Made by a program: the position numbers and the translations under genes. 29,726 nucleotides of DNA, from positions 78,679 to 108,404 of IMG/VR virus record IMGVR_UViG_3300020059_000001; one strand, 5' to 3'. The notes beneath the pieces are model-generated. The model was not told the DNA's origin and ran no database searches. It saw nothing but the letters and a program-made list of their open reading frames with translations. Positions 1,788-19,400 of this stretch are shown here, in pieces. Position 1 is the first letter of the stretch. Every line of letters begins with the position of its first letter. The stretch comes from a virus. Lineage: Duplodnaviria > Heunggongvirae > Uroviricota > Caudoviricetes.

Positions 1788-2010
1788 CCCGAGCTATAGT
1801 GGCGAGCAATTCGTCGGAAGGCGAAGGGCAGCGGTGCGGTAGGGCTGGGCGGGGCATGGCAGGGCTACGCGTGGCGCGGCAGCAGCGGTAAGGCGTGGCT
1901 GGGTTAGGCATGGCCGGGCATGGCTAGGCAGCAGAGGCATGGCGAGACGTGGCGAGGCTAGGCGAGGGCCGGCCTGGCGTGGCAGGCGAACCGGATCCTG
2001 GGGAGGACCG
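1788..2010 (+). repeat. GGY-NN pentamer array 1 (3 units) with leader; putative guide ncRNA
   Basis: TATAGT at 1795-1800; hairpin tcgtc-GGAA-ggcga at 1811-1824; GGCAGC followed by 9 pentamers; linkers at 1878 and 1927. Intergenic. Confidence 0.9.
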
Positions 2011-3475: not shown

Positions 3476-4029
3476 CAGATTTGGTACGCGTAGGTGAATC
3501 CGGCTGGCCGCAGATCGAGTTCCGTAAAGATCAACGGTATGAAGCCGGCGGTAACCAACATCTGTTCAACGGCCTCGGAGTCGAATCCCCAAACGTGTTC
3601 TGGGTTGTTGTCGTCGTCTTCACCGTCCGGTGTGGACAGGATCAGATTAGCCGTCTTGCTCCGGATCGCTTTCAACACCGCGTCGGGGTCATCGACGTGT
3701 TCAATGGTTTCGCTACAGATGAAAAGGTTGATCGGGTCGGTCAGTTGGTGGATGGTTTCTTCGATCGGCCCGGTGTACTCGTAGCCTGGTGCGATGTCGC
3801 CGAGGATCGTCTTCACGCCGCAACTCGCGGCGAGGCGGCGGGCGATCGTCGCGTCCCCGCAGGACAGGTCGGCAACGGTGCTTCCTGGTTGGATCATGTG
3901 TTGGGCTAGGGCGGTGGTGACGTCGACCCGGACCCGGTGGTCGGCCCAGGCGCTGTGCTGGTGCGGTTTGGCGTAGAGCGCGGCTAGCTCTGTCTGGCTG
4001 GGTGTCGGCCGTAGCCGGCGGCGCATCAT
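3463..4029 (-). CDS. Class I SAM-dependent methyltransferase
   Basis: VADLSCGDA and CSETIEHVDDP motifs. Start re-called at 4029 (ATGA overlap with the upstream stop). Confidence 0.8.
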   Translation of the reverse strand: MMRRRLRPTPSQTELAALYAKPHQHSAWADHRVRVDVTTALAQHMIQPGSTVADLSCGDATIARRLAASCGVKTILGDIAPGYEYTGPIEETIHQLTDPINLFICSETIEHVDDPDAVLKAIRSKTANLILSTPDGEDDDNNPEHVWGFDSEAVEQMLVTAGFIPLIFTELDLRPAGFTYAYQIWCAR

Positions 4030-4730
4030 CGGTCTACTCGTTTGCGCAGCGCCTGTACCGCCCGTACATCCGTCCACATTCGTGTGTGCAGATAGGTTTG
4101 GTAGGCGCGGGCGTCGGCGCTGTACACATCGGCGTTGTTGACCCGACGGTAGCCTGGGTCCCAATCCGCTTTACCGGCAACTGGATGCACATGTTCGACG
4201 ATGACGTCGGGCAGGTAGGTAAGGCAGCCGGCGTGCTTACCGAGGTCCCGCCAAAAGTTGTCGACAAACAAGTGAGTCAGCCGCGGCGGTGACATGTAGC
4301 CCAACGCCCGAACGATATCGGTGGTCATCGCGACCTGCGTCGGTAGGTTCTCGCCCTGCAACAGGTCGTTACCGTAGACGATGCCGGTACCGAGCCCGTG
4401 CAGCTCGTCGAGGTACTGCCTGTCCCAGCCCTCAGTGCGGGGCCGGTGGTCATCGCCGAGGAACCCGATCGCGAACCCGCCCTGCTCGACAACGTAGGCA
4501 GCGGCCAGGTTCAACGCCGACACCATCGTGCCCCGTTCCTGCTCGATGATCGACGTAACCCTGTTGATGCCGACCATCGACTCGTAGTAGACGGACCGAC
4601 GCTCATCGTCAGCGTCCAGCGCCAACACGATCTGGGTATCGGCAGCACAGGTCGCGTTGAATGCTTCGGCCAGTTCAGCGACCGCAGCAGGCCGGCCACG
4701 GGACGGCACGATCACCACAAGATCAGTCAT
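4026..4730 (-). CDS. GT-A fold (family 2-like) glycosyltransferase
   Basis: Start re-called at MTDLVVIVPSRGRP; DxD-like LGDDH; HLFVDN; VEHVHP. Confidence 0.85.
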   Translation of the reverse strand: MTDLVVIVPSRGRPAAVAELAEAFNATCAADTQIVLALDADDERRSVYYESMVGINRVTSIIEQERGTMVSALNLAAAYVVEQGGFAIGFLGDDHRPRTEGWDRQYLDELHGLGTGIVYGNDLLQGENLPTQVAMTTDIVRALGYMSPPRLTHLFVDNFWRDLGKHAGCLTYLPDVIVEHVHPVAGKADWDPGYRRVNNADVYSADARAYQTYLHTRMWTDVRAVQALRKRVDR

Positions 4731-5592
4731 CGGCGTCTGTCTTTGATTCGGGTGGCACGTCGTAGGGCGGTGGATTGACGGCGCGTTCCCGCCAGTAGTC
4801 CTCCTCACCCAACCAGATTTCCTTGTGGTGGGTAGTTTGCACGCCGGTGTGGACGTACAGCGGGATGTCCAACGCTCCAGCGCGCATACAGAAGGAAAGG
4901 TCTTCGGATACGACCTGACCGGTCGTAGTGTTCGGCACCCGGTTGTACCAGATCGGCCCGAACTTCTCCTCGATCTGTTCGAACACCGACCGGTGGATGA
5001 GGATGCAAGCACTACCGGTACCGGCGCAACGGGTTATCTGGTTGATTGGATAGTCCCAACGGACCGAGAAACCCATCTGCTCGCCGGTCATTGTCCGCTG
5101 ATGTTCGCCGTGGACAATCGTCTCATCCGAGACGCCGATCTTGGCCCAGTCGAAGACCGTCGGAACTGCGGTACACCGCCAGCCGCCATGCTCATCGGCG
5201 GTCATCTCCCGCTGGCTAAAACAGAGCCCACCGACGATAGGACGTTCAACCGGGTCGGCAGCATCCATCAACCGGTCAAGGGTATCGGCAGCAAAACCCA
5301 TATCGGTATCCAACCAAAACAGCCAGTCGGCCTGATCCTCTTTCAAGAACGTAACAACAGACTTGTTACGTGCATCGATCAACCCGGCCGTACCATACTT
5401 GAGCGCAATGTAACCGCCGCGCATAACCCTAGCTTCATGGGTTATGTCCCAACCGATCATCTCAACCATCGAATGGTGCCACGAATACGACACATTCGTA
5501 TCGTGAACGTACGCTAAGACAACTGCACCATCACGTTCGTTGTCAGTGGCAGCTACCACCGGCACCGGCTCTGTTACTTCTTCCGTAAGCAA
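4723..5592 (-). CDS. GT-A fold (family 2-like) glycosyltransferase
   Basis: RN..V..FL, WLDTDMGF (DxD), GTGSACILIHR, SEDLSFC. TTG start after a GGAGG RBS is inferred. Confidence 0.82.
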   Translation of the reverse strand: MLTEEVTEPVPVVAATDNERDGAVVLAYVHDTNVSYSWHHSMVEMIGWDITHEARVMRGGYIALKYGTAGLIDARNKSVVTFLKEDQADWLFWLDTDMGFAADTLDRLMDAADPVERPIVGGLCFSQREMTADEHGGWRCTAVPTVFDWAKIGVSDETIVHGEHQRTMTGEQMGFSVRWDYPINQITRCAGTGSACILIHRSVFEQIEEKFGPIWYNRVPNTTTGQVVSEDLSFCMRAGALDIPLYVHTGVQTTHHKEIWLGEEDYWRERAVNPPPYDVPPESKTDADD

Positions 5593-7359: not shown

Positions 7360-8844
7360 CTAGGCATTTACGAGCAAACGGAACCCTAGGTCGTTGATCG
7401 AATTCCCACCGATCCTGGCGTACGCGAACCATCCGCGCTGGCCAGTAGGCATGCCGACACCAGTACCCGCTGTCGCCTGGTTGAATAGCTGTGGCACCAG
7501 CTCGACGCTCATTCCGCCACGGCGGGCTATAAGGTAATTCGAGAAATCGCCAACGATGGCAAGTCCGTCAGTACCGGTGGTTACCGCAGTAACGTCGGGC
7601 ATGTACGGCGACTCGTAGACGCCCTTCGCGAACAGCGAGTCTGTCCACTCTTCGGGCAGGTTGATCGTGTAGGCGTGGTAGACGTTCGAGGTGCCGAGCT
7701 GCCGGATCGCGTTGTTCACGCCGACGGACATGAGCCAGGACGCCTTGCGGCGGAACTTCTGCGGCAGCGCCTTCCATACCTTGTATGGGTCGGCGGAGCC
7801 GATGGTCGGTGCGGCGGTAACCACGACGCGAACGTTGGTGTTTGCCGATAGGGCGGTGAGGATGCCGCGGGGTTCGTTGGTGCCGGTGCCGCGGGTGAAC
7901 TTGTCGACGAGTAGTTCGTCGTAGCCCTGTGTTAGCAGGGTTGCCATCTCGTCGGCGAATGCTGGGTAGTCCTGCTGGACTTCGATGGTGAACGGGATGA
8001 AACCGCGGGCCATGTTGACGGTGACCGACGGCTGCGCCAGTACCGGTGACGCGTCGCCGACGGTGGAACCTTCCGTCTGGAACGTCCAGGTGACACCGGC
8101 GGAGGTGACACCCTTCCAGGCGTTGGTGTTGACCGTGACCTGCTTGGCGAGCTGGAGGAACGGATTACCCGACTCCTGCGCGGTCAAGATGATCGACGGG
8201 TCGATGAAGACCGGGATTCCGAAGCCACCGGCGGTGGTGGTGCCTTCGGCCATGATCCGGTATTCCTCCCATGCCTGCACTGCCCGTTGTTCTTCGGGCG
8301 TCAGGATGGGGTGGTTGCGGGTGGTCAGCTTCAGCCACGCCTCGCGGTAGTCGTCGTTTTCGGTGACGAGGATCCGGCGGGCGATGTCGGTGTCACGGCG
8401 GATCTGCCGTTCGACGTGGGTCTTCTGCTCGTCGGACAGGTGCATGGTGGTGGTGCGGTCACCGATGCGGCGTAGTGCCCGGTCCCGGGCTTCGTTGACC
8501 GACAGCCGGCGGACGTCGCCGTAGGGGTCGTCGGGCTGGGCACCGAGACGGCTGTACTCGATGGCCGACGGCCGCTTGCGGAGTACTTCGTTGACGGCGC
8601 GGTGTTCTTCGTACATTTCCAGGGCCCGCTCGTGGACTTCGAGCAGGATCTTCATGGCCTTCTTCTCCGGGTCGGAGAGCTGGCGCAGTTCGGCGGTCAC
8701 CGGGTCCTGGTGCAGATCCTGGATCTGCGCTTTGGTGACATCAATGATTTCGGAAATTTCGTCGGGGGTGCGGCCCCGGAGGTCTTCGAGAGTGAAGGTG
8801 CGCTTCTCGAAACGCTCCTCGGTGCCGGTCCGGTCCTCAGGCAT
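7360..8844 (-). CDS. Major capsid protein (HK97 fold) with N-terminal scaffold-like domain
   Basis: TTTAGGFGIPVFID, DKFTRGTGTNEPRGIL, AIVGDFSNYLI..R and WFAYARIGG; helical N-terminus; follows the protease gene. Confidence 0.93.
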   Translation of the reverse strand: MPEDRTGTEERFEKRTFTLEDLRGRTPDEISEIIDVTKAQIQDLHQDPVTAELRQLSDPEKKAMKILLEVHERALEMYEEHRAVNEVLRKRPSAIEYSRLGAQPDDPYGDVRRLSVNEARDRALRRIGDRTTTMHLSDEQKTHVERQIRRDTDIARRILVTENDDYREAWLKLTTRNHPILTPEEQRAVQAWEEYRIMAEGTTTAGGFGIPVFIDPSIILTAQESGNPFLQLAKQVTVNTNAWKGVTSAGVTWTFQTEGSTVGDASPVLAQPSVTVNMARGFIPFTIEVQQDYPAFADEMATLLTQGYDELLVDKFTRGTGTNEPRGILTALSANTNVRVVVTAAPTIGSADPYKVWKALPQKFRRKASWLMSVGVNNAIRQLGTSNVYHAYTINLPEEWTDSLFAKGVYESPYMPDVTAVTTGTDGLAIVGDFSNYLIARRGGMSVELVPQLFNQATAGTGVGMPTGQRGWFAYARIGGNSINDLGFRLLVNA

Positions 8845-10378
8845 TCTGTGTTTTCACTTCCTCATTGGCTCCGTCGCGGTAGTACGCGTCGCGGTGGCGC
8901 AGCACCCGTTCTCGTTGTTGGAGTCGGGTGATCTGCTCATAAAATTCGTCGTCGGTCGAGCCGCGGTCACTGCTGGACTCGGTCTCGGAATCACCGCCGG
9001 CCGCGCCATCGGCATCGGACTGCCCGGTGAGGTCTGTTCTGAAGCTGGCTTCGGCTTCTTCTTCGAAGTTGTCGAGGCCAAGAATGGGTATTCCGCGGTT
9101 TTGTAGCTCGTCGGCAAGGTCGCGGACGAACTCGCGGCAGAGTGCGTTGCGTTCTTCGGGGTCGAGTTGGGCCATCAATGCCCGGACCCCGACGGTGGTG
9201 TCGTCGTAGGCGGGGAAAACGACCGGGCCGCATTCGCGGGTGTCGGTGTGCAGGATTTCCCGGAAGTCAGCGTCGCCTACGCCGTCGGATCGTTCTCGGG
9301 CGTTAGTCCATTTGTCGCCGCCTTGGGGGACAGCGAAACGGAAACTCATGCCACTGATTGATTTGCCTTCAATGGCCTGCCGGACTGGTTCCACGACCGG
9401 GTTGTCGAAGAGTCGGGCCCGGACGTAGAGACCCCTGTTGTCTTCGTGGATATCTTCGATTGATCCGATTGGCACGCTACCGACGCGTGGATCCCGGCCG
9501 TGATCGTATTGGAGTACCGGTGTCCGTTCGGTGAGTGACCGGCTGAAGGCACCGGGGCGGATGACTTCATCGAAGTCGCCGTTCCAGTCAGAGATTCGGC
9601 TTACCGAGTCGAATACTGCGGCATAGCCTTCGAGGGTCCGACCGTCACCGGCCACTTCGGATTCGAAGTTGAAGGACCGCACCTGGAAGGCGTTAGGGTT
9701 TCGGGACTTCGAATCGGAGCCGACTTTGATGCCGAATTTTTTGGCCGCAGCCATGACCTTGGCTTTCGCTTTCGGCCCGAACGGGCTTTGACTCAGTCGG
9801 GCAAGGGCGTTCTGGGTATGCGCTTTGTCGTGGATCAGGAAGTGCCGTTTCGACCGGGGCGTTGTCTTACCTGAGGCGTCTTTTGTGCCGCCGGGTTCGA
9901 TGAAGGCGAAGGCCGAATCCGGAAGGTCGTTGATGGGTCCAGTCGACATGGCTTTACGGGCAGTCAGGGTTGCTGATCGTGCTTCGCTGTTGCCGGTGTC
10001 CGAGTTGGACTGGCTGCCGCCCTGGCCGTAGGCGTTGCCGCCGCCCTGGCCGTGTCCCGACGTACCTGTTGTTGCCCCTGCGGTAATGCTGGTACCGATC
10101 GAGGTCCCGATCCGGCGGCCGAGGTTGGTGATAGAGGTCATGTCATGGCCGCGGGTTGCGAGGACGTTGGCCGCAAGGGCGGCGACTTCCGGATGTATTC
10201 CTTTGGCTTGTACTGCCTTGGCGGCGCCGAGTGACCCGACGATGTGCCCGGCTACGTCGTGGAGGAACTGGACGTCGTGATCGTTGTGTGCCGAAGCGTG
10301 GATGTCGGTAGGTGAGTCGGCCCGGGTTCCGTTATCGCTGGTGTTTGAGTCTGCAACGGCCCAGTCAGGAATGGCCAT
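8837..10378 (-). CDS. HK97-family prohead protease with long N-terminal extension
   Basis: LEGYAAVFD, PGAF, YDHG (His), PIG, GLYV, SGMSF (Ser), VVFPAY. Confidence 0.9.
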   Translation of the reverse strand: MAIPDWAVADSNTSDNGTRADSPTDIHASAHNDHDVQFLHDVAGHIVGSLGAAKAVQAKGIHPEVAALAANVLATRGHDMTSITNLGRRIGTSIGTSITAGATTGTSGHGQGGGNAYGQGGSQSNSDTGNSEARSATLTARKAMSTGPINDLPDSAFAFIEPGGTKDASGKTTPRSKRHFLIHDKAHTQNALARLSQSPFGPKAKAKVMAAAKKFGIKVGSDSKSRNPNAFQVRSFNFESEVAGDGRTLEGYAAVFDSVSRISDWNGDFDEVIRPGAFSRSLTERTPVLQYDHGRDPRVGSVPIGSIEDIHEDNRGLYVRARLFDNPVVEPVRQAIEGKSISGMSFRFAVPQGGDKWTNARERSDGVGDADFREILHTDTRECGPVVFPAYDDTTVGVRALMAQLDPEERNALCREFVRDLADELQNRGIPILGLDNFEEEAEASFRTDLTGQSDADGAAGGDSETESSSDRGSTDDEFYEQITRLQQRERVLRHRDAYYRDGANEEVKTQNA

Positions 10379-10461: not shown

Positions 10462-13092
10462 TTACTTCTTCAGCGGTGGCCTCGGCTTAGGCGTTGCCTT
10501 ATTTGATGTGCTGCCACCAGCCGGATACGGCTTAGCCGTAGGACTGTCGTTAGCCGCACCAGGCGTCGGATTGTCCGACGACGGTGCCGGTGCATGCCCG
10601 GTCCCAGGTGCATTACCTCCGGGCAATGCGGGTTTGCCGCCACCGCCACCAACGGGTAGCACCGGCTGGCCACCGATTTCGTAAAGCTGAACGCTGACAA
10701 GCCCGGAGTGCTCCAACAAGCTGACGTCTTGGCCGATGACCGCGGCAACCGACGACTTCGGTGTGAATCCGTCTTTGACGTAGCCGGTGATGGTACTCAT
10801 TTTGATTTGTTCGATTTCGGCTGCGTCACGGGCGTCTTCACGCAGGATCGGCATGTCGGCGACGTCGAACCACAGTTCCGCATCGCGTGGCACGTTGATG
10901 ACGGGGGCTAGCGCCGCGCATAGGTCTTGCAGTGTCGGATAGACCCAGGAATCAGCGAAGATACGGCGGGCCATGCCGAAGTTACCGGCATTCAGTGAGC
11001 TACCGGCGAGACCTTCAGAAATACCCAACAATGGGGCCGGAACTCGTGACAAGAAGGCAATTCTGGTTTCCCCAGCTCCCTGGGTATTTTTGAAGTCGAG
11101 CTGCTTCAGGTCGCTACCGACGACTTTCGCGTCGGCGCCAGCAGTAAGATACAGGCTGCGATACGCATTCTTTACGCCAGCGTGTCGGTTCTCCATGGCA
11201 TCAACCATGGCGTCGAACTGTTCCCGCGATGCGGCGGTCAGTCCGTTGACGACCATGTTCGGGGTATTGTGGGTCAGAATAAAATCGTCGGTGACGTACA
11301 GGTGGTTGTCGGAGTCGACACCGATGCACTGTGCCGGCTTCCGGCCGACGTGTTCGACGCCCTGGATGTAGCGCCACCGGCCACCATGGAAGGTGGGTGA
11401 ATACATCGCTGCCTTGCGGGCTAGCCGGCAGGGGGTAATCCATTCCGGTAGTCGACTGATCAGTACCCGCCACTGGGCACGTGCCCGGTCTGTAGCTAGC
11501 CGGCTTGGCCGGGCCGACGCGATACCACCGAGGCCACCGACTAGTTCGGCAACCTGCTCGGCCAACATTTGACTGGTGCTGTCAAACCGGACCGTATTCG
11601 GCTGCCGCCGATCTACGGATCCGTCAGTGTCGATCAACCCCTGGAGCAGGGCAACTCGCTGTGTCACCGATGCACGTAGATACGGCTCCGGAATCGACTT
11701 TTCGTAGCCCAACTTGTCGAACAGGCCCAGTTCGCGGATCTGTTGGGTCAGCGGATTTGGGCGCGAGGCGCCAGGGCCCCGGAAGTAGAACTCGGCCCAC
11801 CCGCCACGGTTACGGCGGACGATCGTTACTCCGGCCGGCAGGAGCGTGGCGAGAACCTGCTGCTGTTCGTCAGCGTCACCAGTATGCGCGGCCATTGAAA
11901 CCCCGCCGCTACCCTTGCCGTTGTTGCGGAAACTACCGTCGCCGAGCAGCGATCCGAGCAGGTAGGGATCCAGTGGCAAATCGCCGGGGTCATCGAACTC
12001 GACCGGATCGACCAGCGGCACCGACCACTTGTAAGGGCCGCTGTCGTACTGGACGCCGTTGGCCACGAGCTGGGCCAGGGTACGGGTCCGGGTAACGCCG
12101 AGTTTGCGGTCATAGGCACTAGCGACGGTCCACAGGTGGTCGGCGGTGCACTCAGTTGATGTACCGCTGGAGAATGTCACCCGGTAGATGTCCTGGACAC
12201 CCTGCGGGTACACCGCGACGACCATCTTGGGCTTACCGTCGGAACCGATAACCCGATCACCAACGACAACCTCACCCATCGTCGTCCAACCGGCCGGCGT
12301 CAGAATCCCCGCGTCCAAGGGCATCGGTGCGCCGTTTTCGAAGAAGCGAAGCTTGTGTTCGGTGGCGGCTTTGTCGCCTTGGATTTCGCGGAGTGCTGGG
12401 GTGAGCCAGGACATGCCGATGCCGGCGGCTTCCGGGTCTGGTAGTGGGCTCCAGTGGGCCATTTCGCCGGGCAGGATGGTGTGCATCGGGTGTTGTGATG
12501 TGCGGAGGCCACCGTTTTGGTAGACGTAGCCGAGTAGTTCACCGTCGAGGGCGTGGGCGGCGTCGTCGGGTTCCTGGTGGGATCCGTAGACGAGGGCAAC
12601 CCAGTCGGGGCGTAGTACGCGTAGCCGGTCTGGTTGGCGGTAGACGTAGGCGTTGCCGGCGATGCCGGCGTGCCATTCCATTCGGGCGATCAGTTCACCG
12701 GTGGTGGCGTTTGTCCACGGCTTCTCTAGTGGGGCTAGCCGGGGGGTGCCGAACATGTGGCGGGGTTTCGACGATGACGGCAAGTTTCGGAATGTGAATC
12801 GGGCTTGGCTCAAAACTAGTGCGCGGACTAGTTGGGCGGCGAAGGCTGGTGGGCAGCTCCGTAGCGCGGCTGAGTAGCCGGGGAGGGTGCCGGCTATTTC
12901 GGATGATTTTGTGCCGTCGAGGGTTTGGATTAGCCCGTACGTACCAGGTCCGGTCACATATTGCGATCCGTTGTAGCCGAACGTTGTGGGGAGTAGGTAG
13001 TTGGAAATCCAATCGTCGGCGGAGAATCGCTCCTCTGTCTCAGTGCCCCTACGGCGAGCTAACTCCTTAGTGACGGCATCCAGTAGCCCCAA
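10462..13092 (-). CDS. Portal protein (HK97-like), intein-interrupted
   Basis: GNAYVY, G(M)SWL, FFENGA|TPNMVV extein junction, IAFLSRVPAPLLG; low-complexity C-terminal tail. Confidence 0.92.
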   Translation of the reverse strand: MGLLDAVTKELARRRGTETEERFSADDWISNYLLPTTFGYNGSQYVTGPGTYGLIQTLDGTKSSEIAGTLPGYSAALRSCPPAFAAQLVRALVLSQARFTFRNLPSSSKPRHMFGTPRLAPLEKPWTNATTGELIARMEWHAGIAGNAYVYRQPDRLRVLRPDWVALVYGSHQEPDDAAHALDGELLGYVYQNGGLRTSQHPMHTILPGEMAHWSPLPDPEAAGIGMSWLTPALREIQGDKAATEHKLRFFENGAPMPLDAGILTPAGWTTMGEVVVGDRVIGSDGKPKMVVAVYPQGVQDIYRVTFSSGTSTECTADHLWTVASAYDRKLGVTRTRTLAQLVANGVQYDSGPYKWSVPLVDPVEFDDPGDLPLDPYLLGSLLGDGSFRNNGKGSGGVSMAAHTGDADEQQQVLATLLPAGVTIVRRNRGGWAEFYFRGPGASRPNPLTQQIRELGLFDKLGYEKSIPEPYLRASVTQRVALLQGLIDTDGSVDRRQPNTVRFDSTSQMLAEQVAELVGGLGGIASARPSRLATDRARAQWRVLISRLPEWITPCRLARKAAMYSPTFHGGRWRYIQGVEHVGRKPAQCIGVDSDNHLYVTDDFILTHNTPNMVVNGLTAASREQFDAMVDAMENRHAGVKNAYRSLYLTAGADAKVVGSDLKQLDFKNTQGAGETRIAFLSRVPAPLLGISEGLAGSSLNAGNFGMARRIFADSWVYPTLQDLCAALAPVINVPRDAELWFDVADMPILREDARDAAEIEQIKMSTITGYVKDGFTPKSSVAAVIGQDVSLLEHSGLVSVQLYEIGGQPVLPVGGGGGKPALPGGNAPGTGHAPAPSSDNPTPGAANDSPTAKPYPAGGSTSNKATPKPRPPLKK
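11266..12327 (-). mobile_element. Class-3 intein with LAGLIDADG endonuclease in the portal (354 aa)
   Basis: Starts PMPLDAGILTP and ends ILTHN/T; WCT motif (DHLW, AQCI, THN); motifs LGSLLGDGS and LQGLIDTDG. Confidence 0.9.
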
Positions 13093-13105: not shown

Positions 13106-13301
13106 CCCGAGCTATCGTTTGTGGCAATCCGCCGGAAGGCGGAGGGCAGTGGCGGGGCGTGACAAGGCTCGGCGCGGCACGCGAAGGCGCGGCAGCAGCG
13201 GCGTGGCTGGGCTTGCGAGGGCGAGGCACGGCAAGGCCAGGCAGCAGTGGCGGGGCAAGGTTAGGCCTGGCACGGCAAGGCCAGGCGAGGCAAGGCCGGC
13301 T
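13106..13301 (+). repeat. GGY-NN pentamer array 2 (3 units) with leader; putative guide ncRNA
   Basis: TATCGT at 13113-13118; hairpin ccgcc-GGAA-ggcgg at 13129-13142; linkers at 13191 and 13240; ends GGCCGGCT. Confidence 0.9.
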
Positions 13302-13314
13302 AGGAGTGAGTAAG

Positions 13315-13635
13315 TCAGGCAGCGGTTCGGGTTTCCCGGGCCGCTGTTTTGTCGTAGCCGGCCCGCCAGCCGACAAGGACGGCGGCTACACACCAGGCGT
13401 TGCCAGCCCGGCAGGCGGTGACTGTCTTCGCGGCGAGGTAGCCGCCGGCGATCAGGGCGGCTGCGATTGTGGAGATCACGGCCCGGAGCACCTTGGCCGC
13501 GGTGAAGCCGACGGCGACCAGGACGGCGGCGAGGACGACGAGGGCACTGCGGCGGAAGTTGACCTGTTTGGCTTCGGTGGCGATCCGGTCGAGGGGCAGG
13601 GTGCGGTCGAAGATGTCGAAGCCGGCGTCTGTCAA
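13315..13635 (-). CDS. Small membrane protein between terminase and portal
   Basis: Hydrophobic segments; WCVAAVLVGWRAG; TTG start. Confidence 0.7.
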   Translation of the reverse strand: MTDAGFDIFDRTLPLDRIATEAKQVNFRRSALVVLAAVLVAVGFTAAKVLRAVISTIAAALIAGGYLAAKTVTACRAGNAWCVAAVLVGWRAGYDKTAARETRTAA

Positions 13636-13877
13636 GGAACCTGCCCTTTCTCGTATGGGGACACAGTGGACATAACAGGGCGTCGGGCTGAGAATTACGC
13701 TGTGAGCGTAATGAGATATGTGCGATCCACTGGCATATGTGGATCCGGCATGTTTATGTTCTTCTTTAGAGCGGCAGGCCCCAAGGTTCCTTAGTCAGCT
13801 TCAGAAAGCATCCTGGAGTGCCCATGCCAGCTGTTGCCCTGAGGATCTGGGCCTCACCGTTCTCGTTCCTCAGTAGA

Positions 13878-14194
13878 GGTTCGGCAGCAGCGGCTAGGCG
13901 AGGCTAGACGGGGCGTGGCTAGGCGGGGCGAGGCAAGGCAGGGCAGCAAAGGCGAGGCACGGCAGGGCAGGGCAGGGTATGGCAGGGCACGGCTCGGCAG
14001 CAGCGGCGGGGCAAGGCAGGGCGTGGTCTGGCGTGGCGCGGCAGCACCGGCGAGGCAAGGCAAGGCGAGGCCGGGCGCGGCGTGGCAGCAGAGGCGCGGC
14101 ACGGCAGGGCGAGGCTTGCGACGGCACGGCATGGCAGCAGAGGCAGGGCGAGGTAAGCCGAGGCGAGGCATGTCCAGGCAAGGCACGGCCGGCT
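13878..14194 (+). repeat. GGY-NN pentamer array 3 (6 units), directly upstream of the RAMP gene; putative guide ncRNA
   Basis: Linkers at 13883, 13942, 13996, 14040, 14084 and 14133, followed by 10, 9, 7, 7, 8 and 9 pentamers; ends GGCCGGCT. Confidence 0.93.
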
Positions 14195-14208
14195 CCGGAA
14201 ACGAAAGA

Positions 14209-14243
14209 TGCCCCGGAAGATCCCCCAAGACCCCTCCGGGGCA
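14209..14243 (+). other. Stem-loop between array 3 and the RAMP gene
   Basis: 9-bp arms tgccccgga / tccggggca. Confidence 0.55.
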
Positions 14244-14273
14244 CACCCCAAGTGAGAGGTTACATCAAGCAAA

Positions 14274-14888
14274 ATGGCTGAAAAGTTAGTTACTTTGGAA
14301 CGGCTTCAGCGCGTTGAGCTGGAGTTTGTGATTGTTGGTACGTCCCCGTTGATCGTCAATCGCTGGTCTGAGAAGGCGAAGGCGATGATGTTGGAAAAGC
14401 AGACGACGTCGGCGCGGGCAAAGAAAGACCCCAAGGACCCGGTCGCTAACTTCGAGGCGTCGAAGTACAAGTTCGACGACGGGCGGGACGGCTTCCCGGC
14501 TGTTTCGTTCAAGGCCTCGATCGTGCATGCCGCCCGGTTGTTCGAGGGCATTACGCAGGTACAGATCAAGCAGACCGTGGTGGTGCGCGGTGAGGGTGAA
14601 CACCAGTTGGTGCCGCTCGAATATGGTGCGGTAACGATGCGCGAGGACACGCCGCGGAACGCGTCCGGGGTGGCGGATCTGCGGTACCGGGCCCAGTATT
14701 GGCCGTGGTCTGCGACGTTGTATGTGCGGACCATCGCTGGGCAGCTCGACGAGGGGTCGCTGTTGGCTCTGGTCGACGCGGCGGGTATCGGCGGGGTTGG
14801 TGAGTGGCGTCCGACGTCGCCGAAGTCGGCGACCGGGACGTACGGCACGTTCCAGATCGATGATGCGTCTGCGGTGGAGCTGCGGTGA
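14274..14888 (+). CDS. Solo RAMP/Cas7-like protein (Vipr-like RNA-binding effector candidate)
   Basis: First strand FVIVGTSPLIV, FPAVSFKAS (cf. the RAMP PGSSLKG motif) and C-terminal Gly-rich loop GIGGVGEWRP...GTYGTF. GAGAGG RBS. Flanked by pentamer arrays. Confidence 0.8.
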   Translation: MAEKLVTLERLQRVELEFVIVGTSPLIVNRWSEKAKAMMLEKQTTSARAKKDPKDPVANFEASKYKFDDGRDGFPAVSFKASIVHAARLFEGITQVQIKQTVVVRGEGEHQLVPLEYGAVTMREDTPRNASGVADLRYRAQYWPWSATLYVRTIAGQLDEGSLLALVDAAGIGGVGEWRPTSPKSATGTYGTFQIDDASAVELR

Positions 14889-15580
14889 CGGTTGAGAAGG
14901 TCAACATCGCGGAGCTGGTCGAGGATATGGATTTCTACCCGCGACACAGTGTCGACGGCGCCCATGTGTTGGATCTGATGCGGGCTATCGCCGCCAATGA
15001 GACGCTTCCACCGCCGGTGGCTGACCGGAAGTCGATGCGGATCGTGGATGGGTGGCATCGGATCCGGGCCTACGCCAAGTTGCATGGCCCGTCGGTACTC
15101 ATCGACGTTGATCTGCGGAGCTACCGCAGCGACACGGAGATACTCAAAGACGCGATCCGGCTGAACGCGAGTCACGGCCGGAAACTCGACCAGCAGGACC
15201 GGACCCGTAGCGTGTTGCTGTTGCAGCGACGCAACGTTGACGTAAAGACGATTGCGGTGGTCTTACACACCACGCAGCAGCGGGTCGAGCAGCTGAAGTT
15301 GCGGTTCGCGTTGGTGAAGAACAACGGCAGCAGCGAGCAGCTACCGGTCAAACCGAACCTGTATCCGAAGCCGGGGGAGGAACCGCGGACATTGACGCCG
15401 GAGCAGTACGCGGTAGCGCAGGCGTCGTCTGGTCATCGGACTACACAGATCCTGACGCAGTTGGCCAACGAGTTGGAGGCCGAGTTGTGGAATGTCGACG
15501 ACGAGCTGATCCGTGAACGGGCCTGGCGGTTGGCTGACCTGATCGCGCAGCGGATCCCGCAGCCCGAGCCGGCGGCGTAG
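14885..15580 (+). CDS. ParB/Srx N-terminal-domain protein
   Basis: LPPPVAD...IVDGWHRIRAY signature, then AIRLNASHG and an HTH-like segment; GTGA overlap with the RAMP gene. Confidence 0.85.
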   Translation: MTVEKVNIAELVEDMDFYPRHSVDGAHVLDLMRAIAANETLPPPVADRKSMRIVDGWHRIRAYAKLHGPSVLIDVDLRSYRSDTEILKDAIRLNASHGRKLDQQDRTRSVLLLQRRNVDVKTIAVVLHTTQQRVEQLKLRFALVKNNGSSEQLPVKPNLYPKPGEEPRTLTPEQYAVAQASSGHRTTQILTQLANELEAELWNVDDELIRERAWRLADLIAQRIPQPEPAA

Positions 15581-15601
15581 TTCTGGTTCTGGGGAGGATC
15601 C

Positions 15602-15870
15602 GGTTCGGCAGCAGCGGTTGGGCACGGCAAGGCGAGGCTGGGCGCGGCACGGCGTGGCTCGGCAGCAGGGGCGAGGCGTGGCATGGCGCGGTAAGGCGTG
15701 GGATGGCAGCAGTGGCTGGGTCTGGCATGGCCTGGGTAGGCAAGGCAAGGCAAGGCAGCAGCGGCACGGCATGGCGGGGCAAGGCAGGGCGTGGCTCGGC
15801 GAGGTACGGCAGCAGCGGAGGGCATGGCTGGGCGAGGCATGGGCCGGCCCGGCGCGGCAAGGCGCGGCCA
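15602..15870 (+). repeat. GGY-NN pentamer array 4 (5 units), downstream of the ParB-like gene; putative guide ncRNA
   Basis: Linkers at 15607, 15661, 15705, 15754 and 15808, followed by 9, 7, 8, 9 and ~11 pentamers. Confidence 0.93.
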
Positions 15871-15875
15871 ACCGG

Positions 15876-15911
15876 GGCGGTGATGAACGGATGGTTCCGT
15901 TCATCACCGCC
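15876..15911. terminator. Perfect hairpin at the convergence of array 4 and terL; probable bidirectional terminator
   Basis: 16-bp arms ggcggtgatgaacgga / tccgttcatcaccgcc with a 4-nt loop; overlaps the terL stop codon. Confidence 0.75.
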
Positions 15912-18900
15912 AACTGCCGAAGAACTGCTGCGGCGGCGCCTCTGGCAGCCCCTTTTCGGTGGCGGTACCACGAGCCTCGTGGGCCAGAACAGCAGCTACC
16001 GCGGCGTCGATACGTAGCCCGTCACCGCGTTTCGCTAACTTCAGGTAGTGGGTGGCGATGCTGTTTTCGTCACCCGGTCGTGGCTTCTTCCGGGATCCCT
16101 TGACCAACACCGCGTTTTTGCAGTGTCGGGTAAGTATTTCGGAGTTGGCGTGGCTGATGTCGCCGGCAGCGAACGAGGTGTTGAACCGTTCGATCGCCTT
16201 GTCGAACCGTTGTTCGACGTTGGTTGGGAATTCGATGATCTGTTTCGGCCAGAGCGCCGACCACACATCCAAATAGTCTTGCCACCGGTACGGGTCGGCG
16301 AACATGAGGGTTACTTGGTAGGCGCCGAATACTTCCCGGACGGTTTGGTCGACTTCAACCGAGGGAACTTTCCAGTCTTCGTCGGCGTCTTTGGGTCGTT
16401 CCCAGGTTTTGAGGTTGAACAGTCGGCCGTCGGACATGCGGGAGGCGATCAGTGAGGTCGCGTCGCGGAGTTTGGAACCGTCGAAGCCGATCGCGATCGG
16501 CGTCTTCGGGGCCAGCAGGTCGTCGTAGGCGGCCAGGTCCCAGCGGATCGGGTCGACGAACACGGACTCGCCGACGACGATTTCGTTGAGGAAGAACCGG
16601 CGCCGGTCGGCTTCCAAATGTCGACTGGACCGGACTTCGTGCATGATGCGGCCTTTGATGTTGACCCAGCCGCCCTGTTCACGAGCCGAGTCACCGTATT
16701 GGCGTAGCAGCTCGGCGTACAGTTCGTCGTCGTCGGTGAGGTCGTCGACTCGATGTGAGTCGACGGTGTCGAGGAGGACCCGTTTCGTACCGGTGTTCTT
16801 CGACAGTGCCGGGTCGGCGCCGTCGCGTGGCACACGGACGGAGTCGTCGGAATCGGCGGTGACCTGGGCTTCGGAACCCTCGGTGGGATCCCAGGCGTTT
16901 GTTAGTTCAAGCCACCGGCCGTCCATGCCGGCGACGTTCCGTTTGACCGCGCCGCAGACCCGCCGGTATCCACCCTGGAGGGTAAAGAGGTGGGAATTGT
17001 GGGTAGGAATCCAACCTTCACCGGCAAGGAAGAGGCTGTCGACTGCATCGACGGTAATACAGCGAACGGGTACCGAGTCCACCGGCTCGATCGAGTCAAC
17101 TGTCAACCAGTCATGTCGATCAGCCGCGACAGGTACCCGGAATTCGCGGCCGTCGGCGACCATCTCTCCCGTTGTACGAACTTTCGGCAGTGCCGCGGAA
17201 CCGTTGACGCGGGTTTCCCAAAGGTGTCCGTCGCTGGCAACGATGCTCGTTCCGTCGGCGAAGGTAAGCCGGTAACAAGTACGGTCGTTCTGAACCTCGG
17301 TAGCACCGATTACACAGACTATGGAGCCGTCGCGACCAAAGATTCGGTCGCCGACCGAGATGTCGCCCATCGTGGTCCAGCCCGTCGGCGTCGGCACCGG
17401 CGTATCAAGGGCAAGGGCTTCCGTGATGGTGACAAAACTCAATGGAGCGCCGAGCCGGGCCTTGGCGCTGGTGGTAACAGGTTCGATGGTGCCGCCGGCC
17501 GGCAGGTTGATACGGGTTTGGCCACAGTCCATTCCATCGACGTTGATGAGTGGTCCGAGGCGGATCATGTCGAGGAGCGGGCGCCAGGTGTTGGAGGTGT
17601 TGTGCGTTGGGACAGCGCGACGGCCAGCTAGGAACAAGTGGTCGGTGGTGTTGATGCCGACGCACTTGACCGGTACTGATTCGACGGACTCGACCGAAAC
17701 GATCTGCCGGTAGTCGCCCAATCGACGCTGCGGGCGGGTGGACTGCCTGCTGGCCTTGTGGGTCAGCTGGAACACGGGTTCTTCGCGGGGAACGAAGAAG
17801 ATCCGCCAGGCGGCGGCCGTGCGGTCGAACCGCATGTTCCAGCGGTACCCGAGTGAGGTCAGCAGCTCGCCGAGGCCGTCGATGATGGCCCGGTTGATGT
17901 TCGTAAAGCCGGCACGGCCGTTGACTTCGATGTGGCCGTCGGAATCCATCAGCCCCTGCAACAGGGCCAGGCGTTGCTTGTGACCGGCTCGCAGGTAGGC
18001 GGCAGGGATGTGCTTGCTTCCCAGCACGTCCAGGTCGCGTAGCCGCTCCCGGAGTGTGCGCAGCCGCTCCGGCGCCGGCCGGTCTGGGCCGCCGGTGCGG
18101 TCCTTGGTACGCCGGCACGGGCCGCACGCCTGGCCGACCATGTCGATTCCGTATTCGTGACCCCAGGGGCATAGGCCCTGCCGGCGGCGGATGCGGAGAA
18201 GCCCCGTATTGCCAACACCTTGGCCCCAGGCGATGTCTTCGAACGGCAGGGTAAGGGGAGCAATGATGGCTTCCACCTCGGCCTTGAGGCGGAGGTCGAA
18301 GGTGATGGACGCATCGCTGGCCGAGCCGTCACCCAGCCAAAGTCCGAGAATGTATGGGTCAACTGGCAGGTCGTCCCCGTCGGGAAGATCCCATACGACA
18401 CCCGCGGGTACCCGGTACCGTGCTCGGAATCCCTTGTCCGATGGAACGCGGTATGTGGCGGCTAGCTGTTCGGTCGTCAGCGTGACCGTACGGGTCCGTG
18501 TCCGGTTCCGGTCGTCGCGGTGGGTAACGTCTTCGACGGTCCAGCTGTGTGCTGCGGACGCCGTTATCCGCTCGCCGTCAGAAAACGTCACGGCATAGCA
18601 GCGTTCACCGAGTAACACCGGGGTTTCATGGACGACGTATGCGGTGCTGCCGTCCGCGGCGAAGATGCGGTCTCCGCGGCGGAGGTCACCCATTGTCGTC
18701 CAGCCGTCAGGTGTGGGCACCGGTGTATCGAGTGCCAACGGCTGTTCTTCTGAGGTGCCGAGGCAGACGATCAGCGGTGTTGGGTAGGGGGCGCCGACTG
18801 GTTCGCCGGTTTCGTCCCAGCCGTCGAAGCGGGTCGGGCCGAGCGCTTCGGCGAGGATGATCGCGGCTGCTAGTGGGTCTTTGCCGTGTTTCTGGGCCCG

Positions 18901-19128
18901 CCGGAATTGGCCGCCGGTGTAGATGAGCGCGTCGGGGGCTGGCCACGGCGCGGCGTACGGGTACAACCGATAGTAATGAAGAAGAAACAAGTATTGTTCG
19001 TCGGTCAGTTTGTACTGCTGGCCGCGGCGGTAACCGTCGGGGATGACGACGTGATTCTCGATCCATTCGGCTACCCGGTAGCCGAGGGTTGGGATTTCGC
19101 CTTCATATTGGGGGCCACGCCAGGGCAT
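15904..19128 (-). CDS. terL: Terminase large subunit with two inteins
   Basis: Walker A variant RRAQKHGKDP; SEEQ|TSN and VTITE|SHL junctions; nuclease motifs IGFDGSK..D, ADPYRW and IDAAVA. Confidence 0.93.
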   Translation of the reverse strand: MPWRGPQYEGEIPTLGYRVAEWIENHVVIPDGYRRGQQYKLTDEQYLFLLHYYRLYPYAAPWPAPDALIYTGGQFRRAQKHGKDPLAAAIILAEALGPTRFDGWDETGEPVGAPYPTPLIVCLGTSEEQPLALDTPVPTPDGWTTMGDLRRGDRIFAADGSTAYVVHETPVLLGERCYAVTFSDGERITASAAHSWTVEDVTHRDDRNRTRTRTVTLTTEQLAATYRVPSDKGFRARYRVPAGVVWDLPDGDDLPVDPYILGLWLGDGSASDASITFDLRLKAEVEAIIAPLTLPFEDIAWGQGVGNTGLLRIRRRQGLCPWGHEYGIDMVGQACGPCRRTKDRTGGPDRPAPERLRTLRERLRDLDVLGSKHIPAAYLRAGHKQRLALLQGLMDSDGHIEVNGRAGFTNINRAIIDGLGELLTSLGYRWNMRFDRTAAAWRIFFVPREEPVFQLTHKASRQSTRPQRRLGDYRQIVSVESVESVPVKCVGINTTDHLFLAGRRAVPTHNTSNTWRPLLDMIRLGPLINVDGMDCGQTRINLPAGGTIEPVTTSAKARLGAPLSFVTITEALALDTPVPTPTGWTTMGDISVGDRIFGRDGSIVCVIGATEVQNDRTCYRLTFADGTSIVASDGHLWETRVNGSAALPKVRTTGEMVADGREFRVPVAADRHDWLTVDSIEPVDSVPVRCITVDAVDSLFLAGEGWIPTHNSHLFTLQGGYRRVCGAVKRNVAGMDGRWLELTNAWDPTEGSEAQVTADSDDSVRVPRDGADPALSKNTGTKRVLLDTVDSHRVDDLTDDDELYAELLRQYGDSAREQGGWVNIKGRIMHEVRSSRHLEADRRRFFLNEIVVGESVFVDPIRWDLAAYDDLLAPKTPIAIGFDGSKLRDATSLIASRMSDGRLFNLKTWERPKDADEDWKVPSVEVDQTVREVFGAYQVTLMFADPYRWQDYLDVWSALWPKQIIEFPTNVEQRFDKAIERFNTSFAAGDISHANSEILTRHCKNAVLVKGSRKKPRPGDENSIATHYLKLAKRGDGLRIDAAVAAVLAHEARGTATEKGLPEAPPQQFFGSWR
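16996..17418 (-). mobile_element. Class-3 mini-intein in TerL (141 aa)
   Basis: Starts ALALDTPVPTP and ends IPTHN/S; GHLW, VRCI and THN (WCT); no endonuclease. Confidence 0.9.
17599..18741 (-). mobile_element. Class-3 intein with LAGLIDADG endonuclease in TerL (381 aa)
   Basis: Starts PLALDTPVPTP and ends VPTHN/T; AHSW, VKCV and THN; LGLWLGDGS and LQGLMDSDG. Confidence 0.9.
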
Positions 19129-19150: not shown

Positions 19151-19400
19151 GTCTATCCGATAGAAGGGGGTCTTTGGCCTCTGGGCAGCGGCATGGCACG
19201 GCACGGGTCGCGAAGGCACGGCAGGGCAGCAGCGGAGAGGCGCGGGCTGGCAAAGCGAGCGATGGCGAGGCGAGGCGAGGCGAGGGACGGCGGCATCGGC
19301 GTGGCTAGGTTAGGCATGGCTGGGCACGGTAGGCATGGCAGCAGCGGCGAGGCTGGGGTTGGGGTTGGGGTTGGCTGGGCCAGGCAGGGCGCGGCCGGCT
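19151..19400 (+). repeat. GGY-NN pentamer array 5 (4 units, more degenerate); putative guide ncRNA
   Basis: Hairpin at 19167-19181, then GGCAGC; linkers at 19225, 19289 (ggcggcatc) and 19337; ends GGCCGGCT followed by a T-run. Confidence 0.87.

Follow-up and report, generated by a model that had tools for sequence, protein, structure and literature searches.

The window examined here is the final 29.7 kb (29,726 nt; positions 78,679 to 108,404) of the 108,404-bp virus record IMGVR_UViG_3300020059_000001, 62% G+C, from a genome whose completeness was estimated at 94%. A minus-strand late module with the terL, portal, prohead protease and capsid genes spans the window, and a plus-strand locus is inserted in it between the intein-bearing terL and portal genes. 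In plus-strand order this locus contains an array of short repeats (array A, 13883-14191), a hairpin with a 9-bp stem and a 17-nt loop (14209-14243), a gene for a 204-amino-acid protein (14274-14888), a gene for a 231-amino-acid protein (14885-15580), a second array (array B, 15607-15870) and a hairpin with a perfect 16-bp stem and a 4-nt loop (15876-15911). We name the two genes vipr and vap after the system to which we assign the locus, VIPR (Viral Interference Programmable Repeat), a CRISPR-like RNA-guided DNA silencer of viruses that at least four preprints have described since April 2026 (among them bioRxiv 10.64898/2026.04.26.720920, 10.64898/2026.04.26.720927 and 10.64898/2026.10.15.759431). 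The GTG start codon of vap overlaps the stop codon of vipr (GTGA), and from this overlap the two genes are predicted to be translationally coupled.

A sequence-only reading of the window had described a two-gene plus-strand operon between terL and the portal gene, flanked by arrays of six and five units and closed by a 16-bp hairpin. The operon and the unit counts were borne out by the coordinates and by shuffled sequences, and the closing hairpin was found as described. That reading had left out a 106-amino-acid open reading frame (ORF) on the minus strand between the portal gene and the vipr locus (13315-13635), a further array at 13151-13298, and the second hairpin at 14209-14243.

Array A consisted of six vrRNA guide units on the plus strand (13883-13941, 13942-13995, 13996-14039, 14040-14083, 14084-14132 and 14133-14191), and array B consisted of five on the same strand (15607-15660, 15661-15704, 15705-15753, 15754-15807 and 15808-15870). 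Each unit followed one grammar, GGCAGCA(G/A/C)N and then 7-10 GGYNN pentamers, so that GGY starts were spaced by 5 nt nearly throughout, with 9-nt jumps at the junctions. The window as a whole contained 19 runs of at least four perfect GGYNN pentamers (128 pentamers), whereas 100 dinucleotide-preserving shuffles of it averaged 0.21 runs and 0.8 pentamers, and the arrays are therefore far above chance. The first NN position was rich in purines (A 40%, G 33%). Of the models built on codon frames and on the genome, the one that fitted NN composition best was sense codon positions 1-2, yet it did no better than a uniform model.

The punctuation between units was measured across this phage and 14 related loci. 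GGCAG formed the end of 61 of 101 perfect runs, compared with 7% of internal pentamers. The 4 nt after GGCAG were CA(G/A/C/T)N in this phage and its nearest relatives, and GC-N-N in mycobacteriophage Saal and two other related loci (L009 and L011), where they amount to a 1-nt overlap of two pentamers. Both forms of the junction shift the register by one base. A junction of GGCAG and 4 nt is too short for a 40-60-nt pseudoknot tail of the kind carried by the vrRNAs of the Escherichia phage SUSP1. An Rfam scan showed no hammerhead ribozyme or other Rfam family. No CRISPR-like repeat family was present in the window and the neighbours were phage structural genes, in agreement with the earlier statement that no canonical CRISPR array or cas1/2/3 gene lies nearby.

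Signals that may control transcription were found on both sides of the arrays. A consensus scan placed a putative promoter-like site (TGGACA-17-GAGAAT, 13667-13695, plus strand) upstream of array A, with 2 sites observed against 0.3 expected. Just past this site lay two small perfect palindromes, ATTACGCT/AGCGTAAT at 13694-13712 and GATCCAC/GTGGATC at 13724-13745, which could be operator sites governing the locus. The hairpin between array A and vipr is a possible terminator, attenuator or array end. The 70 nt after array B had a fold energy of -43 kcal/mol, and the hairpin at 15876-15911 is probably a two-way terminator, because it stands at the end of array B and also shares bases with the terL stop codon.

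The 204-amino-acid protein belongs to phrog_4652, a family whose function is unannotated, and neither this protein nor the 231-amino-acid protein matched Pfam when each was searched singly. A single-sequence search of the PDB returned one weak match for the 204-amino-acid protein, named "SUSP1 Vipr protein" (36pp). A profile of 109 diverse relatives also matched only SUSP1 Vipr in the PDB, with an E value of 5e-13, and hhalign against the SUSP1 gene product YP_009199429 gave a probability of 98%. The AlphaFold (AF2) model of the protein, with a predicted local distance difference test (pLDDT) score of 94.8, showed a beta-alpha-beta RRM core, a long beta-hairpin at residues 112-154 (the thumb) and a C-terminal loop rich in glycine (G-loop). 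The top five matches among AlphaFold DB clusters were A0A0F9A1L0 (E value 3e-16, template modelling (TM) score 0.77), X1U2U4, A0A661D0E2, A0A1F4YLN4 and A0A2D6XG06, and the same five accessions are the first Vipr hits or seed proteins in the methods of the VIPR discovery preprint. Below these came the Cas7, Csm3 and Cmr RAMPs, and the fold matches in the PDB were of the same kind, so that the RAMP-like character proposed from the sequence was recovered by structure prediction and Foldseek. Because the profile matched SUSP1 Vipr and the five seed proteins were the top fold matches, the protein is assigned, by sequence and model, to the Vipr family of RAMP proteins. The sequence-only reading was right to liken the locus to VIPR systems, in that the protein is homologous to a characterised Vipr in both sequence and fold. 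The Vipr family itself comprised 2,632 clusters at 50% identity.

We compared the protein with the residues that contact GGY in SUSP1 Vipr, which a cryo-electron microscopy (cryo-EM) preprint gives as H17, R138, D177, W178 and R179. The corresponding elements here are strand beta-1 (GTSPLIVN, residues 22-29), the thumb hairpin (strands E112-125 and E137-154, with R137 and R139) and the G-loop AAGIGGVGEWRP (residues 169-180). SUSP1 R138, D177, W178 and R179 aligned to R139, E177, W178 and R179, and we counted four of the five contacts as putatively kept, a correspondence read from the alignment and not from an RNA-bound structure. Across the family alignment the arginines and the G-loop glycines were invariant or nearly so.

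Homologues of vipr occurred together with the arrays, a check that the sequence-only reading had proposed. GGYNN arrays lay beside vipr on the same strand in 14 of 15 relatives. Among the phage or IMG/VR loci the arrays adjoined the gene on its own strand in 10 of 11, the eleventh contig ending right after the gene, and all four further contigs reached through the second gene had the same arrangement. This co-occurrence spanned Vipr identities of 41-84%, with contig L013 as the closest relative (84%). Homologues with 38-57% identity, all annotated as hypothetical, were found in cluster F mycobacteriophages and Gordonia phages, and include Saal gp51, Donkeykong gp49 and Gordonia phage Ecliptus gp19. 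In the cluster F mycobacteriophages (Saal, Donkeykong, BobaPhett, Gorge, Philus and others) the Vipr homologue and its arrays were located between the antirepressor and excisionase genes; in Saal this locus is at 36.5-37.6 kb of NC_023580. Several mycobacteriophage records annotate the array itself as a "hypothetical protein" gene, and the annotated start of Saal gp51 falls inside the array.

Such annotations, together with the spurious ORFs that pass through the GGYNN tracts in this phage, could indicate that the tracts are functionless in themselves, being either slippage microsatellites or coding sequence of low complexity. However, a 5-nt period is unable to keep a reading frame, and GGY was fixed while NN was different in every unit. 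The tracts also had fixed punctuation, leaders and terminators. Both this unit grammar and the co-occurrence with vipr over the whole range of identities contradict the explanation, and we give it next to no credence.

The 231-amino-acid Vap contained an N-terminal ParB-N/Srx-like domain followed by a helix-turn-helix (HTH) domain. It matched phrog_1033 (ParB-like) with an E value of 4e-12, and Pfam ParB_N was reached by only 3 of 34 family members. The AF2 model (pLDDT 94.2) was matched by Foldseek to the N-terminal and HTH structures of ParB, Noc and KorB at E values of about 1e-6. The motifs DG.HR..A and N...GR were invariant in the family, and DG.HR..A aligned to the arginine patch of ParB. 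The C-terminal half (residues ~140-231) had no match. Vap was also unrelated to the ~140-amino-acid partner of most actinophage relatives. A ParB-like gene followed vipr directly in four other contigs (L013-L016), where Vipr identity was 43-84%, the vipr stop and the ParB-like gene start overlapped or abutted, and the neighbouring genes differed. Because the pairing recurs among different neighbours, the ParB-like protein is, as judged from sequence, a stable alternative Vap.

A partition-like cassette is another way to read the ParB fold of Vap and the resemblance of the surrounding repeat arrays to parS clusters. The GGCNN repeats would then be DNA sites of centromere or iteron type for the ParB-like protein, and the small protein would be an adaptor. 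A search of the 94%-complete genome for a ParA-type ATPase (PF13614) found none, whereas all 14 control genomes were matched. Most relatives keep vipr and the arrays with a different ~140-amino-acid partner and without the ParB-like gene, the arrays are strictly on the vipr strand, and the first protein is assigned to Vipr. The partition explanation is hardly credible on these grounds.

Guides were not restricted to the two arrays that flank vipr. The whole genome contained ~29 guide units at nine sites, 27 of them on the plus strand, and the sites in the window besides arrays A and B were 1833-1985, 13151-13298 and 19184-19397. The first of these belongs to a remote array (1788-1985, plus strand) with three units (1833-1882, 1887-1931 and 1936-1985) and a leader of its own, made up of a -10-like TATAGT, CAAT, a hairpin with a GGAA loop and AGGGCAGC. 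The second array (13106-13298, plus strand) had the same type of leader before its three units (13151-13298) and was followed by a canonical hairpin-plus-T-run terminator. The third (19184-19397, plus strand) was more degenerate, with ~3-4 units just beyond the terL start, and was followed by a 17-bp hairpin. The leader was common to four remote arrays and consisted of a -10-like TAnnnT, CAAT, a 6-8-bp tetraloop hairpin, AGGGCAGY and the first pentamer; copies were located at 1788-1832 and 13106-13150 of the window and at 17.85 kb and 7.75 kb (minus strand) of the genome. The hairpin stems varied between copies with pairing kept (compensating U-G, C-G and U-A at one pair). The leader may serve the first filament as a 5' cap or as the point where its assembly begins. 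Most arrays also had a strong G+C-rich hairpin within ~25 nt downstream. Given the shared leaders and the downstream hairpins, each array appears to form a separate transcription unit, with promoter, leader hairpin, guide units and terminator hairpin.

The guides were all distinct (29 of 29). Two pairs of guides from different arrays shared four consecutive NN (GG-AA-AG-GT and AG-AG-AG-AT), compared with 0.29 pairs expected; the pairs are 14005-14044 with 15763-15812, and 13951-14000 with genome position 17962. This hints at guide duplication, or at variants aimed at related sites. No guide was common to this phage and its closest relative L013, and the longest shared run was 3 NN. The GGY framework and the proteins are conserved while the NN letters are replaced, the behaviour that targeting information should show.

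To look for targets, we scanned the phage's own 108-kb genome with the guides as NNx patterns, with skips of 0-3 and shuffled-guide controls. The scan showed nothing above the shuffled guides except the arrays themselves, and the VIPR preprint likewise reports no self-targets. A search with 81 guides from this phage and its relatives against the relatives' loci gave three matches barely above the control, all from guides with 7 NN, and these were not taken as targets. In the vipr and vap genes of 14 relatives and of the phage itself, the strongest guide match reached p = 0.22. Exact scans of IMG/VR with six guides returned 0, 0, 2, 0, 1 and 0 matches; the three matches were in contigs of 52%, 27% and 42% GC, and their number was about that expected by chance. 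Exact scans of the JGI metagenomes with two guides returned 0 and 0. The only exact match of guide B-1 was at 2085-2110 of the IMG/VR contig L021 (42% GC). There it kept to the frame of a long ORF (open over 957 nt, for a Cys-rich product), and the skipped base fell on the wobble position. We rejected it as a target, as one match is predicted by chance for 18 specified bases and the G+C content of the contig does not fit.

The position of the remote arrays allows a different use of the guides. In this reading the system is of the VIPR family, but the arrays, or at any rate the remote ones, control late genes of the phage itself or have RNA and not foreign DNA as their target. Three minus-strand late genes (the 1199-1771 gene, portal and terL) each have a remote array that begins just beyond the start codon and points away from the gene, and the nearest solved folds to the protein are the RNA-targeting Cas7 and Csm3. 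However, no guide matched the own genome above shuffled guides under any skip rule, save for the self-match of the arrays. The likeness to Csm3 reflects the general RAMP fold, the closest fold matches being the Vipr seeds of the preprint, and SUSP1 Vipr, the characterised family member, binds double-stranded DNA. We regard regulation of own genes or action on RNA as improbable.

A role as decoy or anti-VIPR guides, which redirect or target the VIPR of a competitor, has been published for the solo vrRNAs of satellites and VIPR-null phages (10.64898/2026.10.15.759431), and some remote arrays of this phage could be of that type, with guides at nine sites and most of them far from vipr. But the remote units share the GGCAG junction of the vipr-flanking arrays and therefore fit the resident Vipr, and no guide matched vipr or vap of this phage or the 14 relatives above shuffled controls. 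We hold a decoy role to be more improbable still than regulation of own genes.

The locus was compared with known systems, beginning with the type II VIPR of SUSP1 (vipr YP_009199429, vap1 YP_009199428, four vrRNAs). The Viprs are homologous (204 amino acids here and 195 in SUSP1), with a similarity detectable only by profile and the same thumb and G-loop residues. Both are phage-borne two-gene vipr-vap operons with same-strand GGY-NN guides on both sides and no self-targets. Unlike in SUSP1, the guides abut through GGCAG and 4 nt in place of a 40-60-nt pseudoknot tail, ~29 guides are spread over nine sites in place of four at one locus, and the host is probably an actinobacterium. The locus falls within VIPR but outside its type II layout (the SUSP1 and P. 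fulva architecture), as its units are joined by GGCAG and 4 nt and its Vap shows no kinship to Vap1.

Other known systems were compared as well. The legend of fig. S18 of the VIPR preprint describes "staggered" vrRNA arrays, in which guides are consecutive without tails or ribozymes and the end of one is the start of the next, as here. As far as this legend goes, it is fitted by the GC-N-N junction of Saal, L009 and L011, while the CA-N-N junction of this phage, unlike GC-N-N, is not a truncated pentamer. The loci of the cluster F mycobacteriophages and Gordonia phages, at the identities given above, have adjacent same-strand arrays whose guides end in GGCAG. They differ in a ~140-150-amino-acid Vap of another family and in their position in the immunity/early region or tail-gene block, compared with the terL-portal interval here. 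With the RAMPs of Class 1 CRISPR-Cas (Cas7, Csm3, Cmr4 and the type VII Cas7) Vipr shares an RRM core, a hairpin that forms the thumb and a loop rich in glycine (Foldseek E value ~1e-6, TM score ~0.5). In contrast to those systems, the locus has no cas genes and no repeat-spacer array, its neighbours are phage structural genes, and its period is 5 nt, with only two of five guide bases used, compared with 6 nt in Cas7-type systems. Vap resembles the CTP-dependent clamps ParB, Noc and KorB in its N-terminal ParB/Srx fold, its HTH and its Box-II-like G.HR.RA and N...GR motifs. Unlike in ParABS, there is no ParA partner in the genome and no recognisable parS, and only the ParB-like fold is present.

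Several results weigh against the assignment to VIPR. SUSP1 H17 aligned to N29 in this protein (position 29 is H in 80 of 109 relatives). Vap showed no relationship to the 146-amino-acid Vap1 of SUSP1, the only Vap with published experiments behind it. Eight exact NNx scans with seven guides in IMG/VR and the JGI metagenomes gave no matches or matches at chance level in low-GC contigs. The guides are short, with 7-11 NN compared with 9-16 in the published type II system, and have no conserved 3' tail, so that maturation and filament capping must differ from those of the only characterised system. With these points taken into account, we assign a probability of about 0.88 to the reading of the locus as a VIPR system carried by a high-GC virus that is uncultured and actinophage-like. 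Its most likely function, by homology, would be RNA-guided silencing of a competing mobile element by a 1-nt skip code.

The mechanism proposed here is modelled on experiments with SUSP1. The cryo-EM preprint showed for SUSP1 that one Vipr protomer binds each pentamer and that NN are the targeting letters, as the sequence-only reading had supposed for the present arrays. In the virus described here, the arrays would be transcribed into guide RNAs and one Vipr protomer would bind each pentamer, gripping GGY through beta-1, the thumb arginine and the E-W-R of the G-loop and leaving NN exposed. The 7-11 NN pairs would then read double-stranded DNA as NNxNNx, with every third base skipped, and this reading would keep a phage, prophage or satellite that competes within the same host from being transcribed. 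The junction of GGCAG and 4 nt is probably where one filament stops, or where a cut is made, and where the next filament begins, because each guide has the fixed GGCAG and only 4 nt shift the register by one base. It would replace the job of the SUSP1 pseudoknot tail. The ParB-like Vap probably makes silencing on DNA stronger or more extensive.

A more specific version of this mechanism can be drawn by analogy with KorB on RK2. Vap could act as a nucleotide-gated DNA clamp that is loaded or held where the Vipr filament opens the target, so that recognition of 20-30 bp spreads into long-range silencing, and the break of GGCAG and 4 nt could let one unprocessed transcript carry several filaments. 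We consider this version unlikely. If true, the Vap clamp or the multi-filament transcript would be a working principle not described for VIPR.

The remaining genes of the window are those of a tailed-phage late region on the minus strand. The terL gene (15904-19128, 1074 amino acids) and the portal gene (10462-13092, 876 amino acids) are both enlarged by LAGLIDADG/Hint inserts that resemble inteins. PHROG terminase matches to terL fall in three stretches, and terL may therefore contain more than one intein-like insert. The prohead protease (8837-10378) and capsid (7360-8844) genes follow the portal. The capsid was ~37% identical to the capsids of Gordonia and Mycobacterium phages, with distant kinship also to Rhodococcus phages, and the source is probably an uncultured, high-GC, actinophage-like virus with an actinobacterium as host. 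A host look-up in a genome collection matched two metagenome-assembled contigs only. A methyltransferase-/glycosyltransferase-like gene (4026-5012) and a nucleotide-sugar epimerase gene (2013-2873) of the late region, both on the minus strand, suggest DNA or virion glycan modification.

Three features had been offered as possibly new in the sequence-only reading, and they are new only in part. The abutting multi-guide layout has a precedent in the staggered arrays named in the VIPR preprint, and the dispersed guides have one in the solo vrRNAs (10.64898/2026.10.15.759431). For the ParB partner, the word ParB was not found in the main text of two of the VIPR preprints. The locus is thus a genuine example of VIPR, a kind of system already known, and reveals no new kind. 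The ParB-like Vap, the CA-N-N tail-less junction, and the number and spread of self-contained guide cassettes are particular to it, as details of a sub-type.

With ~29 guides and compact, tail-less punctuation, the locus is a well-resolved addition to the VIPR examples, from an actinophage-like virus of high GC. The recurrent ParB-like partner is a concrete lead on the unexplained role of Vap proteins. The same Vipr branch occurs in mycobacteriophages of cluster F and in phages of Gordonia, for which laboratory strains (M. smegmatis mc2 155, G. terrae) serve as hosts. These phages therefore offer a tractable Gram-positive model for the maturation of tail-less guides, for the role of Vap and for the elements that are silenced.

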